A stretch of 64,000 nucleotides of DNA, taken from assembly GCA_000004985.1 (NCBI GenBank), contig GG738854.1. One strand, given 5' to 3'. The translations under genes were made by a program, and so were the position numbers. Of the stretch, positions 1,601-23,700 are shown one piece after another. How positions within the stretch are numbered: the first letter of the stretch is position 1; every line of letters begins with the position of its first letter. The stretch comes from Naegleria gruberi (taxonomy: Eukaryota). The notes below the pieces were generated by a model. That model worked only from the letters and a program-made list of their open reading frames with translations, had not been told where the DNA came from and ran no database searches.

Positions 1601-4600
1601 TCAATGTAACGTGCCAGTATCACTGTTGGAATTTTGGTAATTATTAAAATTATGTAATGATTGGAGAGGAATCAATCGGGGGAGATCATCGATTTTTTGA
1701 CATTGTGATTGTAATTCTTCCAATAAATCAATAATTTCAATAAATTCAGGTCTTTGTGAGGAATCCTGAGCCCAACATCTTTCCATGATTTGAACATATG
1801 ATTCTAAAAATCCAATAATTTCACTTTTTCCAAGATTTTCGATATGTTTCTTTGTAAAATTGTGTTCAATCCACTCATCAATTTGTTTTTCACTGAATGA
1901 TTTTGCATGCAACAGTTCTGGCCTGTGTCCTTTTGCAACTCTCATCAATATTTGGAAAACAGTTGTAGAGTTATCAATTTCATTTGAAAATGGTAATATT
2001 TCATATAATAGCTCCCACATTATTACTCCAAATGAATAAACATCCACTTTTGTGCTTTTACCTTTGTGATTATCTGAAAGTAATTCCTATAAAACAAAGT
2101 TCAACAAATCTATTTTCAATAGATACTTACAGGTGCCTATTGTATTTGTTAATGAATTCACAATAAAATACTTCCAAACTTACCATATAGAGTAAAGTTC
2201 CAACATTTGAGGTCATGGTTGCTGAATTGTTTGAAACAATTTTGCTCAATCCAAAATCTCCAACTTTTGCGTTCATAATCTTGTCCAATAAAATGTTCCC
2301 TGGTTTCAAATCTCTGTAATATTTTTGTTTAGGATAGAGTAAAACTCATAACATACCTGTGAATGATTTTGTGAGGTTTGATAGAATGTAAATATATCAA
2401 TCCTTTGGTGATATCAATCAAAATTTTAAGCTTGGTCTCAAATCTCATAATTTCTCTTCCTATTCTTGAGTTATAAATTGCCTTTTCTAGACTTCCATGT
2501 TCCATATATTCAACAACCATATATTTTCCATTGGTTGTGAGCGAAACTCCATAACAACTGACAATACAGGGATGTCTCAATGAGCTCATTAACATTGCTT
2601 CATTCTCAAACTCCTCATCATTTGAATCAGTTTTCAATTGTTTGATGGCAACATCAGTTCGATTCCACTTGGCATGGTAGATCATGCCCATTGCTCCTTC
2701 ACCAACTCTTTTTAGAATATTAATTTCTGATATTGGAATAATGTATTGTTGTCGTTTTTTTTGTGAATTAAGGATTTCCTTAGTATTAGAAGAATCTATT
2801 CCACTGTTAATACTATTTGAAGATATTAGTGGGGTGAATTCACTCTCAAATATAAATTCATTATCTGTAAACTTCCTTTCAATTTCCTTTTCAGCACGTT
2901 CTTGCTTCCTCAATTTCAACAATTTTCTTGTTATGAATATTCCTGCGTATAAAACTGCTCCAAATATAATTAAGAGTGAAATGAAACCTAATATTGCAGA
3001 GGTTAAAATAATTGCTATTGGAGAATATTCACAAATATAACCATTATCAAGCTTGTTTAAAATATAACTGTTTGGGCATGGAAGTATTTTCACTTTGACA
3101 ATTTTCTCAATGTCTGGAGTTACTATGATTGATAGAGAAAATTCTTTGGATATTTGACTTGGAAATATTTGCAAGCTCACTAATATTGTACGATTGTCAA
3201 ATAGATTATTTTGAGAAACAGTTCCATCTTCAATATTCGTTGGTCGAATAATCAACATATTCGGTTCCATCAATGATGAGGCAGTTTGATTGTAAAGATC
3301 TTTCACTAATACATTCATCTTGAATGATTCTCCAGGGTATATTTCAAGTTCATTGCCATTTTCTGTATTTCTTTCAAATTGAACTTCAACAGTTTGCAAA
3401 GGTGTCGCCACATTATTGCCATAGCATAGAGCATTATTTCCAACTATTATTTCGCCATTAACGGTCAACTGAGAGTAAATGCACCCTCCAGCATAAGCTG
3501 CAAGATTATTTTCACAAATTATATTCTTAATATAGGGAGTTACCGTGTTTATCCACATGGCCCCACCATTTTTTGCCGAGTTGTCATTAAAGGTAGAGTC
3601 AGTAAAACGAATTGAGCCAAATAATTTAGTTGTTTCAACATAAATTGCTCCACCTAAATCAGCAGTGTTTTTGGTAAATTGTGAATTTCCAATGTCTAAA
3701 TCTGTTCCATAAAGATAGAGTGTAGATCCTTTGCTTCCACCTGTATTTTCAATAAATTTACAATTTGTAATGGAAAGTGAATAGGACAACATTGTTTGAT
3801 CAAAAAATTCTAATAAAGCAGTGCCTGTTGTGAGTCTATTTTCAATAAACAAGCTATTGCGTATAAGTATTGCGATAATGCTAATAGAAGGATTATCTGT
3901 AAAGGATAAAAACCTTCCCCTATTATTTGAAACTAGACAGTTATTAATTGTTAAGGAGTCAACCATTTGTAATGAAAGCAACGCATTAGAGGCTGTATTA
4001 TTTTTAAAGGAACTGTTTGAAATTAGTATTCCAGAAATGCCAATCATTTGAAAGAGCATGTAATATTCAGTGTTTTCAATAGTTACTCCATTCAATTCAA
4101 TATTATCCAATGATATGAATAAAGCATTTGATAATACAGTAGAATTGATAATTGAAACTCTATTTCCAAGATTGAATTTCGAGATGGTCAGTAAGGAGCT
4201 TAATTTTGAGGTCCAAATAGAATTACCAATAGTAAATGTCTCAAAATTATCCATGTGAAAAACTCCATTAATTCTGCAATTATTAAATAGAACTGTTTTA
4301 GAATTTTTCAAATTAATAATTACTTCCATATTAGTGTTGAAAACGAATAGGTTTAATACTCCCACAATACTGAAATAATAATAAAAATTACAATCAATAA
4401 TCTCCAATTTTCGAATTTCCGAATGCATGACGACTGCATCTCTTGTTGTGCAATTTAACAATTTGAAATGTTCAATTCCATTATATAGTAAGAATTCCCC
4501 ACCAATGAATCCAAACTCTATTGTAAATGCATCAATAATTGCGTATGCCTGTAAATTGCCACGAGTAGTGAACAATTGCTTGTCCTTTCCTTTCCATATC

Positions 4601-5040
4601 ATTTCGAATCGATTTGCGTATTTGGAAAAATCGAAATTTGTTTCATAGCTTCGCATAAGTCCATTAATTACAATCACCATTGTGAAATTATCCAATTTTT
4701 TACCTTGATTAATTATTTCTGCCAATTCATTGTTTGCTGCTTTTACAATTTGACTCGGAGAGGAACATGGTTGATGCTCATCCCTACACGTTGCATTCAA
4801 ATCATCAACATTAGGAAATTCAGAATCTAAATAATAAATAGCTGAATATGATGATGAATTAATTGTATTGTTGGCCATTACATATTGATGATGCTCTTGT
4901 TCTTGTGGTTGGAGTACTACTACTAATTCATTATTAGCTAATATCGACTCGGACTTTGTTATTATCATCATTATCATCATCATAATAATTAAAAGCCTAA
5001 TAAATCTAAGAACCTCCGAAGAGGTGGTTATCTTGTGCAT
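1601..5040 (-). CDS. Receptor-type protein kinase with Pmp-like (GGA[ILV]/FxxN) beta-helix ectodomain, paralog 1
   Basis: Exons (minus strand) are 5040..2357, 2313..2184, 2136..2131 (microexon) and 2086..1601, with introns of 43, 47 and 44 nt (GTATGT..CAG, GTAAGT..TAG, GTAAGT..TAG). The N-terminus has a signal/anchor (LLIIMMMIMMII). The ectodomain carries repeated GGAIY, GGAMW and GGCIY plus FTKN and FNDN motifs. The transmembrane segment is IAIILTSAILGFISLLIIFGAVLYAGIF. Kinase motifs present are GEGAMGMIY, VAIK, HR|DLKPGN (split by intron 1), DFGLSK, LLYM-AP-ELL and DVYSFGVIMWELL. The first ATG is at 5040; the ORF-track 'M' at 5052 is a TTG. Confidence 0.7.
2131..2136 (-). other. Candidate 6-nt microexon (GCACCT, Ala-Pro of the kinase APE motif)
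   Basis: On the minus strand the sequence reads ...CTATATG|GTAAGT...ACAATAG|GCACCT|GTAAGT...TTTTATAG|GAATTA. The six nucleotides are flanked by a perfect acceptor and a perfect GTAAGT donor. Including them gives the canonical GTLLYM-AP-ELL motif. Skipping them is also in frame but leaves the kinase without the AP of APE. Confidence 0.45.
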
Positions 5041-8339: not shown

Positions 8340-11300
8340 TTAATTCATAAGAATGGAAGAACACTTATTGAGCTTGTCACAAATTTCTGCAAATGAAGGT
8401 CTTTCAACGTCCTTGTCCCAACATTTTGTCATTATTTCACACAACTCTTTCACAACAAGGGCAAGCTTCATCTCTGAATTACGAGAAGATCCAAAAATTC
8501 CTCCCTTCTCATTTTCCATCAAAAAGGAATTGACATATTCCTTCAATAAAGGATCCAATTGTTGATATCTTCTTGAAGATGAACTAATGTGATCACTGCC
8601 AGTACCTTGGAAGGAGAAATTCTTCTTGATTCTAAATGGAATTATTGGTCTCAATCCATTCACAATCTCTGTTGTAATTGAAATCATGTTAAAGTTAGGC
8701 AAGGTAATAGAATCAATTTGCTCAATATCAATGTTTGATTTCACGAGAGGAGAGTCATTTCTAAGTGGTTCCTTTTCCAATTCCACATCATCAATATTAC
8801 TATCTTCATCCAAATTAATTGGTTCGTAAGGTTTCACATTAATAAGATTCTTGTGCTTGACCATAAAATTCTTCATGGCTTCAAAACTTTCGGGACTGTA
8901 GGCACGTTCTTCAAAGAGCAATTCCCACATGATAATACCAAATGAGTAACTGTCACACTTTTCTGAATAGTCCTGACCTAAAATGAGCTCTGGAGGCATG
9001 TAAACTGGTGTGCCGATGGCTGATGTGAGTACACTTGCAGAGTCTTGAGTAAATTCTCTTCCTAATCCAAAATCACAAATCTTGGCAACATTATTTTCAG
9101 AGATGAGAATATTTTCAGGTTTGAGATCTCTGTGAATCAATGGTGGATCTAAACTATGCAAATATTTCATACCATACGCAACATCTAACAAGTAATTGAG
9201 CTTTGTTGCCAGGTTGAGTGGGGTCTTTTTCTTTTTCGAGTCGTGAATCTTCTTTCTCAATGTACCTCCACTCAAATATTCAATGACAATGAACCGATCA
9301 CTTGGTGTAATTGCAATTCCATAGAAAGTAACAATATTTGGGAATCTGAGAGTACTGAGAATATAAGCTTCCTTTTCAAAAGTAGAGTTGATTGTGTCTG
9401 TTTCTGCTTGATTGTCTTCATCATATTGAGTAATGTCAATATTAATTCTCTTGACAGCTACAGTGTTATTCATCCATTTAGCTAAAAATATTACTGATTC
9501 ACCACCTTGGCCAATTCTTTCAACAATTTGCAGGTCTTCAGGTTTGATAATCCAACTCTTATCTTGATTGAAGGAGCTATTTCCTGCTGTATCATCGTGC
9601 AAACTGTGTTTGGAAGAAATAAGTTGATATTGGAGTAATCTCTTGTGTAAATCTTCTTCTGCTTGTTCTCTCTTCTTTAATTCTTTGAGTTTCTTTTTGA
9701 AGAAGTACAAACATAATGTGGTTAATAAAATGATAAAGGTCAAACCAAGGGCAACAATAACACCGAGTGAAATGAGTAATGCATTTTGAACTGCTGAATT
9801 GAAAATACATGCCTGATCATCTACACTGTAATCAAAACTGAAAGGACAATTTGGTTCAAGGTTGACTGGGAAGTAAAATTGTTGAATAACATTCTTACAT
9901 TTAAAGTAAAGAATTAAGGTTTGATTGAGTTGTCCTTTCACTTGTACGTTACTGAAAATAGCTGTATCATTTGAGAAGGTTGTAGAAACGTGATTCTTGT
10001 AGTCTTCTGTGTTGTTAATATTAGTTGTGAAAACCAAATCAATATCTGCATTCTTGATGCTTTCCATTCTTTCATTGAACAAGTCAAACGAATCCAAGGT
10101 TATTTTCACAAATTGACCTGCATATAAATTAAAACCAGTGTACTTTTTCAAGAGAAGAGACTTGAATATACTAAGAGGAAAATCGTACGGAGTATCCTTT
10201 GGTTCCCATCCATTACTAGAAAGAGCAAAATACTTTGGATCAGAGGCATAATTGTCTCCATAAAGTTCAGCATAATTATCGTCAAAAAAAGCAGTCTTGA
10301 ATTGGCTGGCAATACGCATACTGGTTGTTCCTACGAGAAATACAGCACCTCCAGAGTTTTCTGCTCTATTGTGAAGGAAATTAATATTGCTAAATTGGAA
10401 TTTTGAATTTGGATAATCAATGTTATACAAGTACATTGCTCCACCATTGTCTGCCTTGTTATAGCTCAGAGTGATATTAGAAACTGTAGTAGAAACAGAT
10501 GAAGGAGTGAAGAGAATTGCACCTCCCATTCCTTCTTTCACTGGATTGTGGACAATTCTATTGTACTGAAATAAGGAATCTTGGATATTCAAATTAGTTA
10601 AACCATAGGCAAATACAGCACCTCCTCCTGGAGCTTGCTCAGAGTAGGCCTCTTCAGGTTTGTAAATAATTACATTTTGACTAAATTTAGAACTTCTCAC
10701 ATCCAATAAATCTCCTCTCGACACGTAAATTGCAGAACCACGAATACTGGCAACATTACCTTCAAAAGAGGAATCCTTCAAAATGAGCGAACTCCTTCTC
10801 TCTCCATAAATACCGCCAGCTCTTCCTTGTCGTGCTAGTCCATAGTTGAAGCTACTTCTCTCCACAAATGAGTATGTACTTGATTTGAGATAGAGAGCAC
10901 CTCCATATCCATCACAGGTACTGTTAAATAGAGTTGAATCGTTCAGGAAAAATTTTCCCTTCTCAATAAAAATAGCTCCTCCATCGTACTTGGAATAACA
11001 TTTAGAGAATGTGGAATAGGTAATACTTGAATAAGGAATATCCAAATACAAACATCCACCAGAATCTTGACTTGTTGCTGTTTCGAATTTTGAAGTTGTA
11101 ATTGATACAGATCCACTCTCAGAAGTGACATAGATAAAACCACCAAATGAAGAGAGGGCAGTATTGTAACCATCAGAAAATGTGGAGCGTACCAATGTGA
11201 AAACTCTATCAGTAACTCGTTCGCTTTGATCTGAAATGTAGATTGATCCTCCATGTCTCAAAGCAGTATTTCCCTTAAAATTACAACGTAAAACACTCAA

Positions 11301-20712: not shown

Positions 20713-23700
20713 TTACATGAAAAGTGGGCTATCATCACATAATCTGGCAATTTCATACAAATGTTGGATAATTTCCTCAAAGCTTGGTCTTTCATTTGGG
20801 AGCTGATGCCAACACTGTTGCACTAGTTTGATATACTTGGAAACACCTTCAACAAATAGATTGCTGTTCTCATTATTGATTGGTTGAATAAATAATCTTG
20901 TCCATTCCTTCAATTGTTCATCATTTGAGAAGGGAATGTTTGGTCTTTTTCCTCTCACTATCTGGGTAATAACTGTTAGACTGTTACAATCTGACATCTC
21001 TGTAAAATAGTTCATCTTTTTGTGATTGTGAGTCGTATAAGGAACTTCTTCAAAAAAGAGTGACCACATAATAATTCCAAACGAATAGACATCAATCTTG
21101 GATGCATTCTTGATTCTTTCCTCTTTTGATAAGGAAGATCCTCCAAATGTACCTGATCCAATTGATGAATTACTATTCATATTTGAATTGGAATAATGGA
21201 TGGAGTCGGTAGCGTTTGAGAATCCAGAGAACTGTTCATTTTCAAAAAGCTCAGAATTATTAGAAACTCCAGAATCAAAATTCTCTGGAAATATTTGTTT
21301 AACACAGTGAAACTAGAATAAAACTTACCTGGAGGGCAATATAGAAGTGTACCAATGTTCAATGTCATACTAGTTTCAAACATGTTATTTCCAACAATTC
21401 TTGAAAGTCCAAAATCACAAATCTTTACACAATTTTTATCATCAAGAAGTACGTTTGCAATTTGAATGCCAGAATTCAATAAATTGTAATATAAATTACA
21501 TACCTGGTTTCAAATCACGATGACAAATCATATTTGGTTTAAGTGAATGCAAATAGGACATTCCTCTACTCACTCCCATCAAAATATCCAATTTCTGTTT
21601 CATAGTCAACTTTTGGCGACCAACTTTGCATTCACTGATTAGTTTTTCCAAACTACCTCCTTTCATGAATTCAATCACCATATATTTCTGGTTCTTGTTT
21701 GGAACACAAAAACCGTACATTGTAACTATTTCATCTTAAGTTATTTGAAACATAGGGGAATATTACATACCAATATTAGGATGTCTCAAACTAATTAAAA
21801 GTGCTCCTTCTCGTTCAAAAACATCTTCGTCATCTTGGTCCTTGATTGATTTAATTGCTACTTCAATTCCTTTCCATAATCCTTGATAAATCATTGATTG
21901 ACCTCCTTCTCCAATACGTTTCTGAATTGTAATATCCTCGGTTGGAATAATAAATGACGCCTTACTGTTAGGTCTATCCTCAGACTCTTCGAAAATAATC
22001 TTCTTATCAAGTAATACCCTTTCCATTTCAGATTCAGCTCTGGTTCGTTTTCTCAGTAGCTTTGATTTGTATCTAGCAACACAAAGTCCAATTAATCCAA
22101 TACAAGTGGTAATCAATGTCACTGCTGCTAAGCTTGTGACTAGAGGGAGAATGTAAAAAATGTTCACACAACCTGGTGCCTCATATCTATAGAAAGAAGG
22201 GCAAGAATCGAGAATAATATCCACCGTATAAGTTACTCTCTCATAGGTTACTGAAAGCTGCACACTTCTTGCTTCCTTGACTTCAGAATTTGAATACAAG
22301 CTAAAAGGCAGCCTGAAATCAGTATTGTTTGAGGAATCTGTCTTTAAAAACAGACTAGAATCACTAACTTGAAGAGTAATTGGAACCTTAGGTGTTTCAA
22401 TTAATCTTCCAAAAATGTTTCTTGCCTCAATCTCAATAATAAATTTTTGCCCCAAATAGGCTTTTTGAGTACCATTATAAACCGTGTGAGGATTGACATC
22501 AAGCTCAATAACTTTGTACTCAAATTCAAAACAAGGAGAGGAAATAGAGTCGTCATTGTCATAATAGTATTCTTCATTGATATAAATGGACCTATTACTG
22601 AGCACTTCTGAGTATCCAATTTTTCCATATTTTGCAGTGTTTGCATAAAAGACATTACTTGGAGTAATCGTGACCCGTATCTCTTTTGGTGCTTCCCCAA
22701 AGAAAATTACACCTCCCTTCTTTGCTATGTTTCGTTCAAAGTAACTTGTACTTATTTCAGAACTTCCTGTTACATAGAGTGCACCTCCTATGGTGTTTTC
22801 ATTTCCATTTCCAATAAATTTCGAGCCATCCACAGATAACACGTTTATATCGTATTTCGCACGAGACCTATATTCATAAAATATCGCTGAGCCCTTTGGA
22901 GCAACGTTATTGTAAAACTCACAATTCTTGACATGAAAAATAGCACTTGATTCAATATAAATTGATGATGTAGTGCAATTTAAAAATCTGGAATTTTGCA
23001 CAGTAGAAGATTTTTCGAAATAGTCATTGGATGGAATAATAGTATCATACGAAATTACATAATATATTGCTCCATTATAAGCATTTGGTTTCACATTAAT
23101 AAATTCTGAATGATCAACAAGGAAATAATGAATATCTTGCATGTGTAAACAAGTTGCAGAAATGTTGTTACATGACAGGTTTGTAATTTGTAACTCTTTG
23201 CATGTACTGATAAATATCATACTGCCTTGTGTGTTACTGTCATAGACTCTAACATTGTCAATCACTAGTTTGACGATAGAGGATACAAATAGCCAATTGG
23301 TTCCCATTGAAATGTTACTGTTAGTTATGTATGCGTCAATGGAATATCCAATATATAATACAGGATATCCTATTGCAAACGTTCCAATATAATCAATATT
23401 GTCAATAATTATTTCATTAGATTCAATGATTGAAAGTATAGAATCATCTCCAGTATCACACTCAAGTATTTTAACATCATCTACCCTTTCAATGAAGAGT
23501 TTGGCTTTCAGAGCAGAGTTTGTAATTTGCAAAATTCTTGAATTTCCTATAAAAGTATCCCCTCTGATTGTCACATGATCAAGCTCAATAATATCATAGT
23601 TAGCCATTCTCAAGTTTGTATCTGATATATCAACTTGTTGAAATATTGATACAGTTCCTTTTCTTGGTGAAAGAACCATTTGATTATTATATGTAAATTC

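Follow-up and report, generated by a model that had tools for sequence, protein, structure and literature searches.

We examined a 64,000-nucleotide (nt) stretch of Naegleria gruberi contig GG738854.1, hereafter called the window, for a very small exon in a receptor-kinase gene on its minus strand; all positions given below are those of the whole stretch. The gene is NAEGRDRAFT_64576 (XP_002680385.1, EFC47641.1, UniProt D2V6W1). Between two of its exons lie the 97 nt of minus-strand 2183..2087, which consist of an intron (A), the six nucleotides GCACCT and a second intron (B). Judged from the DNA sequence, GCACCT (2136..2131, minus strand) is very probably a true coding exon of 6 nt that is included constitutively, was born of two old introns 6 nt apart and provides the Ala-Pro of the kinase APE motif. 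The structure of the gene is as follows.

2357..5040, minus strand: exon 1, with a signal-peptide-like start, a parallel-beta-helix/Pmp-like ectodomain, a putative transmembrane segment and the kinase N-lobe up to ...KIIH and the AG of the HRD Arg codon
2314..2356, minus strand: intron 1 (GTATGT...ACAG, 43 nt), which interrupts the HRD Arg codon in phase 2
2184..2313, minus strand: exon 2, 130 nt, (R)DLKPGNILLDKIMNAKVGDFGLSKIVSNNSATMTSNVGTLLYM, placed by translation and tblastn
2137..2183, minus strand: intron A, 47 nt, GTAAGT...ATAG, phase 0, at the YM / AP boundary, sequence GTAAGTTTGGAAGTATTTTATTGTGAATTCATTAACAAATACAATAG
2131..2136, minus strand: candidate microexon GCACCT, 6 nt, Ala-Pro of the APE motif
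2087..2130, minus strand: intron B, 44 nt, GTAAGT...ATAG, phase 0, at the AP / E boundary, sequence GTAAGTATCTATTGAAAATAGATTTGTTGAACTTTGTTTTATAG
1601..2086, minus strand: last exon, beginning ELLSDNHKGKSTKVDVYSFGVIMWE (ELLSDNHKG...), kinase C-lobe and tail, with the stop codon TGA at 1603..1601

Ahead of its donor, exon 1 has an open frame of 908 codons, in which the first ATG lies at 5040. Removal of intron 1 restores IIHRDLKPGNILL, and in P0230, a relative from JGI sample 3300059473, an open reading frame (ORF) running from the intron into RDLK is consistent with this position. Exon 2 ends in ...NVGTLLYM (...DFGLSKIVSNNSATMTSNVGTLLYM), and the downstream exon (2086..1601) opens with ELLSDNHKGKSTKVDVYSFG. 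GCACCT is directly preceded by an ATAG acceptor and directly followed by a GTAAGT donor. Since the junctions in the 97 nt are all of phase 0, inclusion of the six nucleotides keeps the frame and gives YM-AP-ELL; the spliced sequence with Ala-Pro is TATATGGCACCTGAATTA. The junction string would be TTACTCTATATGGCACCTGAATTACTTTC if the microexon is included and TTACTCTATATGGAATTACTTTC if it is skipped. An earlier note, made from the letters alone, had proposed this arrangement, and its coordinates, lengths and motifs (2183..2087, minus strand; 47 + 6 + 44 nt) were all found to be correct when the sequence was read again.

The spliced product comprises 1101 residues with a hydrophobic N-terminus, an ectodomain of GGAI-type repeats, one hydrophobic segment and a complete kinase domain. 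The hydrophobic stretches, picked by eye, are LLIIMMMIMMII near the start and IAIILTSAILGFISLLIIFGAVLYAGIFI ahead of the kinase. The protein matches Pfam Pkinase (PF00069) with 175.9 bits (gathering cut-off 31.7) and an E-value of 1.3e-51, and the catalytic motifs GEGAMG, VAIK, HRDLKPGN, DFG, APE and DVYSFG are all present. Distant homologues of the ectodomain carry PF02415, the chlamydial polymorphic membrane protein repeat. In the window protein the GGAI-type repeats are visible and PF02415 gave no match at E <= 0.001, while an N. lovaniensis relative showed a faint Chlam_PMP match.

The public protein XP_002680385.1 (685 amino acids, aa) contains YMAPELL within ...NVGTLLYMAPELLSDNHKG.... 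In the 97 nt, Ala-Pro can be encoded between canonical splice sites only at GCACCT, and the reference model therefore already holds the 6-nt exon. Hence, the suggestion that such an exon is easily missed by gene finders does not apply to this gene, yet the models of two paralogues stop at this very region. These partial public models of close N. gruberi paralogues, P0197 (XP_002678082.1) and P0067, end with ...SNVGT and ...YMAPE, respectively, exactly at the intron cluster; their loci lie on other scaffolds or elsewhere on the same scaffold. It may be that the annotation pipeline failed at the cluster in both. At its other end, XP_002680385.1 starts with an internal Met (ATG 3792), yet the ORF is open to the ATG at 5040 (window 3792..5040, minus strand). 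The additional 416 residues upstream of the public start have a signal-peptide-like opening and are collinear with the protein of the homologue L005 described below, so that the public model looks N-terminally short by about 416 residues.

Statistical evidence speaks strongly for the exon. The pattern AG/GCNCCN/GTAAGT (slashes mark splice junctions) occurs once on both strands of the window (128 kb), namely at the microexon, while the base composition predicts 0.002 occurrences per 128 kb and 1.4e-6 per 97 nt. The donor GTAAGT itself is found in 16 copies on both strands where about 44 are expected, and two of the 16 fall within the 97 nt. Its scarcity is consistent with an avoidance of strong donors outside introns. 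Nowhere else in the whole window do two strong donors (GTA[AT]GT) stand less than 130 nt apart, and no further tandem donor pairs or microexon candidates were found in it. The introns that could be placed by homology or ORFs, in the window and in relatives, measure 40-68 nt, mostly 43-53 nt. The hypothetical single intron of 97 nt would thus be about twice the local size, roughly as the earlier note had argued.

The profiles of protein kinases likewise favour the two residues. With Ala-Pro the score rises from 162.3 to 180.0 bits for Pfam Pkinase (+17.7 bits) and from 164.2 to 176.2 bits for PK_Tyr_Ser-Thr, PF07714 (+12.0 bits). AP-E was found in 73 of the 120 best homologues, and any residue followed by P-E in about 98 of the 120, counted by a crude pattern match. 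When all GT-AG paths through the region were enumerated in the window, four were in frame: one including Ala-Pro, one skipping it, and two using a weak internal donor.

The comparative evidence comes mainly from a metagenome contig, L005 (ENA, ERZ929261 / ERR1078381; 3793 nt, 32.5% G+C), to which we were led by P0176, a short ORF fragment with 85% identity around DFG. After removal of its introns, L005 encodes a protein of 1048 aa that aligns collinearly with the window protein (1101 aa), starting in the ectodomain and reaching the C-terminus; the identity is 37% over the whole and about 70% within the kinase domain. The end of its activation segment reads ...GGAACTCTATTAT/gtaagt..(45 nt)..aaag/ATATT/gtaagt..(40 nt)..aaag/GCACCT/gtaagt..(49 nt)..atag/GAGTTACTT... 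and is translated as GTLL-Y-I-A-P-ELLSNHHRG. Thus, at 3230..3374 of L005 (and also in L006), three introns fall within 11 coding nucleotides and leave adjoining exons of 5 nt (ATATT) and 6 nt (GCACCT). Intron A of L005 occupies 3280..3319 (40 nt), the GCACCT exon 3320..3325, and intron B measures 49 nt. The 14-nt block AGGCACCTGTAAGT (AG/GCACCT/GTAAGT) is identical in L005 and the window, whereas the cores of the adjoining introns are just 47% and 38% identical.

An exhaustive enumeration of GT-AG paths in L005 showed that all in-frame, stop-free paths require an exon of 11 nt or less. Skipping of the 5-nt ATATT exon breaks the frame; the exon is hence obligatory, and since it has to be included to hold the frame, the lineage would splice such exons routinely. 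A 5-nt exon is also suggested for the third relative, P0230, by its peptide: the read-through GTLLCKYNV...DSDIVSNFKIM is what would be expected from T/gtaagt...ag/ATATT/gtaagt. A scan of metagenomes with the kinase-domain alignment (N-lobe peptide patterns) returned four distant kinases only, with 27-31% identity.

In other members of the kinase family, the intron positions A and B are occupied as follows.

Position A alone (YM / AP, phase 0): N. lovaniensis C9374_013523 (L011), 2338..2398, 61 nt, TATATG/gtaggt..61 nt..aaag/GCACCTGAA
Position B alone (two residues / Glu, phase 0): L001, IAP/46 nt/EILED
Position B alone: L002, an EGF-type receptor kinase, YMPN/43 nt/EMISEDD
Position B alone: N. 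lovaniensis C9374_002741 (L012), YMSN/68 nt/EMISG
Position B shifted by one base (phase 1): window paralogue, 21328..21285, 44 nt
Intron absent: L003, L004, L013 and the window paralogue at 9554..8805

Some of the family members deviate from APE (SNE, GNE, PNE), and all of these keep two residues before the Glu. Since positions A and B are each attested singly in relatives, the microexon is what remains where both were kept: it is the remnant of two old and mutually independent intron positions that lie 6 nt from each other and are both retained in this gene. The intron positions that create the 5-6-nt exons are shared and have been differentially lost across the receptor-kinase family. Two other origins of intron A were considered and rejected. 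As a tandem duplicate of intron B it should resemble the latter, and the alignment of the cores was no better than that of shuffled sequences (-9 versus a mean of -2.3). A recent gain in this gene alone is contradicted by the occurrence of the position in L005 as well as in N. lovaniensis L011. Within this family, L002 (JGI 3300002220 contig, about 1780..1920) is an environmental relative with EGF repeats and with PNE in place of APE; a second intron, 52 nt downstream of its intron B, splits ...IDVFS/FGVL and leaves an exon of 52 nt.

How might an exon of 6 nt be recognized? Introns A (47 nt) and B (44 nt) both start with the full donor GTAAGT, end in the acceptor TAG and would be recognized by intron definition. 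If the splice sites are paired across the short introns, recognition of the exon as a unit would be unnecessary. The 3' splice site of A is only 6 nt away from the 5' splice site of B, and the two introns are probably removed sequentially: the first splicing event would make the microexon the end of an exon of normal size. The sequential step follows steric arguments cited in PMC8378409. In Caenorhabditis elegans, a microexon was relieved of its need for PRP-40 when a flanking intron was shortened, a result that was interpreted by the authors as intron definition (PMC8378409). The product would be a kinase whose activation segment ends canonically, ...GTLLYMAPELL....

Several points weigh against a constitutive exon. 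The model behind XP_002680385.1 may come from a homology-driven predictor and would then be no independent proof. L005 is known from metagenomic DNA alone. The motifs TTAAC and TGAAC, 12-13 nt upstream of the acceptors, resemble branch points, and such YTRAY motifs are too loose in AT-rich DNA to serve as evidence for introns A and B. Finally, protein-database queries of 1101, 303 and 125 aa, with matches about 71-1780 aa long, did not return a transcript-derived fragment of the gene; only the public model was identical or near-identical. What was observed directly is how the sequence is built and conserved, its statistics and the necessity of tiny exons in L005; from these we infer the inclusion in the mRNA, the constitutive use and the order of intron removal. 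Taken with the agreement with XP_002680385.1, this comparative and statistical evidence strongly supports the proposal of the earlier note that GCACCT provides the Ala-Pro of APE between two short introns.

The same note had gone further and predicted a regulatable switch, in which the 6-nt exon is conditionally skipped, so that the kinase with a canonical APE would exist beside an isoform without Ala-Pro, shorter by two residues. We consider such regulated alternative splicing unlikely. Skipping would be in frame both in the window gene, where the path with a single 97-nt intron is free of stops, and in L005. Moreover, exon skipping has been described in N. gruberi transcriptomes, although intron retention exceeded exon skipping in all but one of the surveyed species (PMC6142364). 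On the other hand, nothing speaks for a switch: the splice sites are full consensus (donors GTAAGT, acceptors ATAG), and the microexon and its flanks are perfectly kept in L005. There, the adjoining 5-nt exon cannot be skipped without a frameshift, which argues that efficient inclusion is usual in the lineage. An isoform without Ala-Pro would score 12-18 bits lower on the kinase profiles and would have a shortened P+1 loop, and the two residues are part of a core kinase motif. At the microexon, no splice signals were seen that are weak or unusual enough to make inclusion conditional; regulatory motifs were not specifically searched for. To our knowledge, the microexon regulators SRRM3/4 are restricted to animals. 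It is in animals that PMC12626424 describes these dedicated factors.

A more specific form of this idea, skipping of the microexon in some conditions, for example during the transitions between amoeba, flagellate and cyst, with an inactive or altered-specificity kinase isoform as the result, we regard as equally doubtful. If it were true, it would represent a microexon switch outside of animals and plants. A more modest and more likely reading is that introns may be crowded where the activation segment of Naegleria receptor kinases ends, up to three of them within 11 coding nucleotides, which would make exons of 5 and 6 nt obligatory there.

Very unlikely is that the 97 nt form one single intron, that GCACCT is never used, and that the kinase naturally reads YM-ELL. 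Such an intron would be canonical GT-AG with an in-frame, stop-free path, and some family members do depart from APE (SNE, GNE, PNE). However, these relatives keep two residues before the Glu, and a deletion of two residues was seen in none of them. The single intron would further require that AG/GCACCT/GTAAGT arose over 14 nt by chance (1.4e-6) and was conserved in L005 by chance as well, and that the internal GTAAGT donor goes ignored, while homologous genes show an intron boundary on each side of the 6 nt. That the gene is a decaying pseudogene with a meaningless exon-intron structure is hardly credible: it does sit among paralogues, one of which (22932..20749) has an intron without a usable AG acceptor, but its frame of 1101 codons is intact once three canonical introns are removed, and it holds all catalytic motifs and the Pkinase match (E-value 1.3e-51).

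Constitutive microexons as small as the one favoured here are already known, and this one is already part of the reference gene model. In plants, constitutive and conserved exons of 1-15 nt have been described, among them a validated adjoining pair in rice, 5 nt and 12 nt long (PMC8831610, Yu et al. 2022). The Naegleria exon resembles these ultra-short plant microexons in being a tiny coding exon between canonical introns with strong GTRAGT donors and in encoding residues of a conserved domain (PMC8831610). In Chlamydomonas, Pkinase ranks with the top domains, and, as here, plant microexons are kept between species and lost in some homologues through intron loss (PMC8831610). It differs in its lineage (Heterolobosea/Discoba), in its flanking introns of 40-68 nt and in being known from DNA, while the plant microexons are RNA-validated. 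Also, the Naegleria exon is present in the reference, whereas the plant microexons are mostly missing from annotations (PMC8831610).

With the neuronal microexons of animals (27-30 nt or less; SRRM3/4, PRP-40/PRPF40A), as they are described in PMC8378409, PMC11648925 and PMC12626424, the Naegleria exon shares the size class and a length that is often a multiple of three. Both add one or two residues at a protein surface or loop, and both are so small that exon definition would fail. In contrast, the animal microexons are switch-like and alternative, with long flanking introns and dedicated regulators; the Naegleria exon has introns of about 45 nt, consensus splice sites and no sign of regulation, and it lies in a core motif of a catalytic domain rather than in an optional insert.

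In the Schistosoma micro-exon genes, very short exons of 6-36 nt follow one another in runs. These genes encode secreted proteins and are made up almost entirely of symmetric microexons, the skipping of which creates variation. Unlike these, the Naegleria case comprises one or two microexons within an ordinary kinase domain. Like the 4-nt microexon of human MPC1 (PMC9929638), the Naegleria exon is a constitutive coding exon of few nucleotides. MPC1, however, is a vertebrate gene, inclusion of its microexon was credited to strong exon-definition regions amid long introns, and the length is not a multiple of three (PMC9929638).

A literature search returned no paper that relevantly ties Naegleria to microexons. 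New here are the comparative confirmation, the discovery that a relative has adjoining exons of 5 nt and 6 nt, and the map showing where the introns are present or absent. The annotation at the APE site does not change, since XP_002680385.1 already includes Ala-Pro. Of modest wider interest is that exons of 5-6 nt between introns of about 45 nt are apparently spliced routinely in Naegleria; the tiny conserved exons known from plants thereby gain a counterpart in a heterolobosean. The exon is a small data point on the dynamics of intron gain and loss as well as a natural test case for the splicing of a near-minimal exon under intron definition. Exons of this size escape standard aligners; RNA sequencing data for N. 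gruberi exist as PRJEB23822 (PMC6142364). For gene prediction in heteroloboseans, the two paralogous N. gruberi models that stop at this region call for caution.

Within 22 kb lie three paralogous receptor kinases, this gene among them, whose ectodomains consist of Pmp-like repeats and which are all encoded on the minus strand (5040..1601, about 11195..8805 and about 22932..20749). At the APE motif, the first has introns A and B and the second has none, while in the third a phase-1 intron sits one base further downstream than position B. In this third paralogue, another intron, 21503..21458 (minus strand), follows DLKP-G and starts with GTATGT, and no AG precedes the point at which the frame resumes (...CAAATTG/CAAACGTACTTCTTGAT, giving ANVLLDD). 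Two readings offer themselves, an apparent 46-nt GT...TG intron or a damaged gene.

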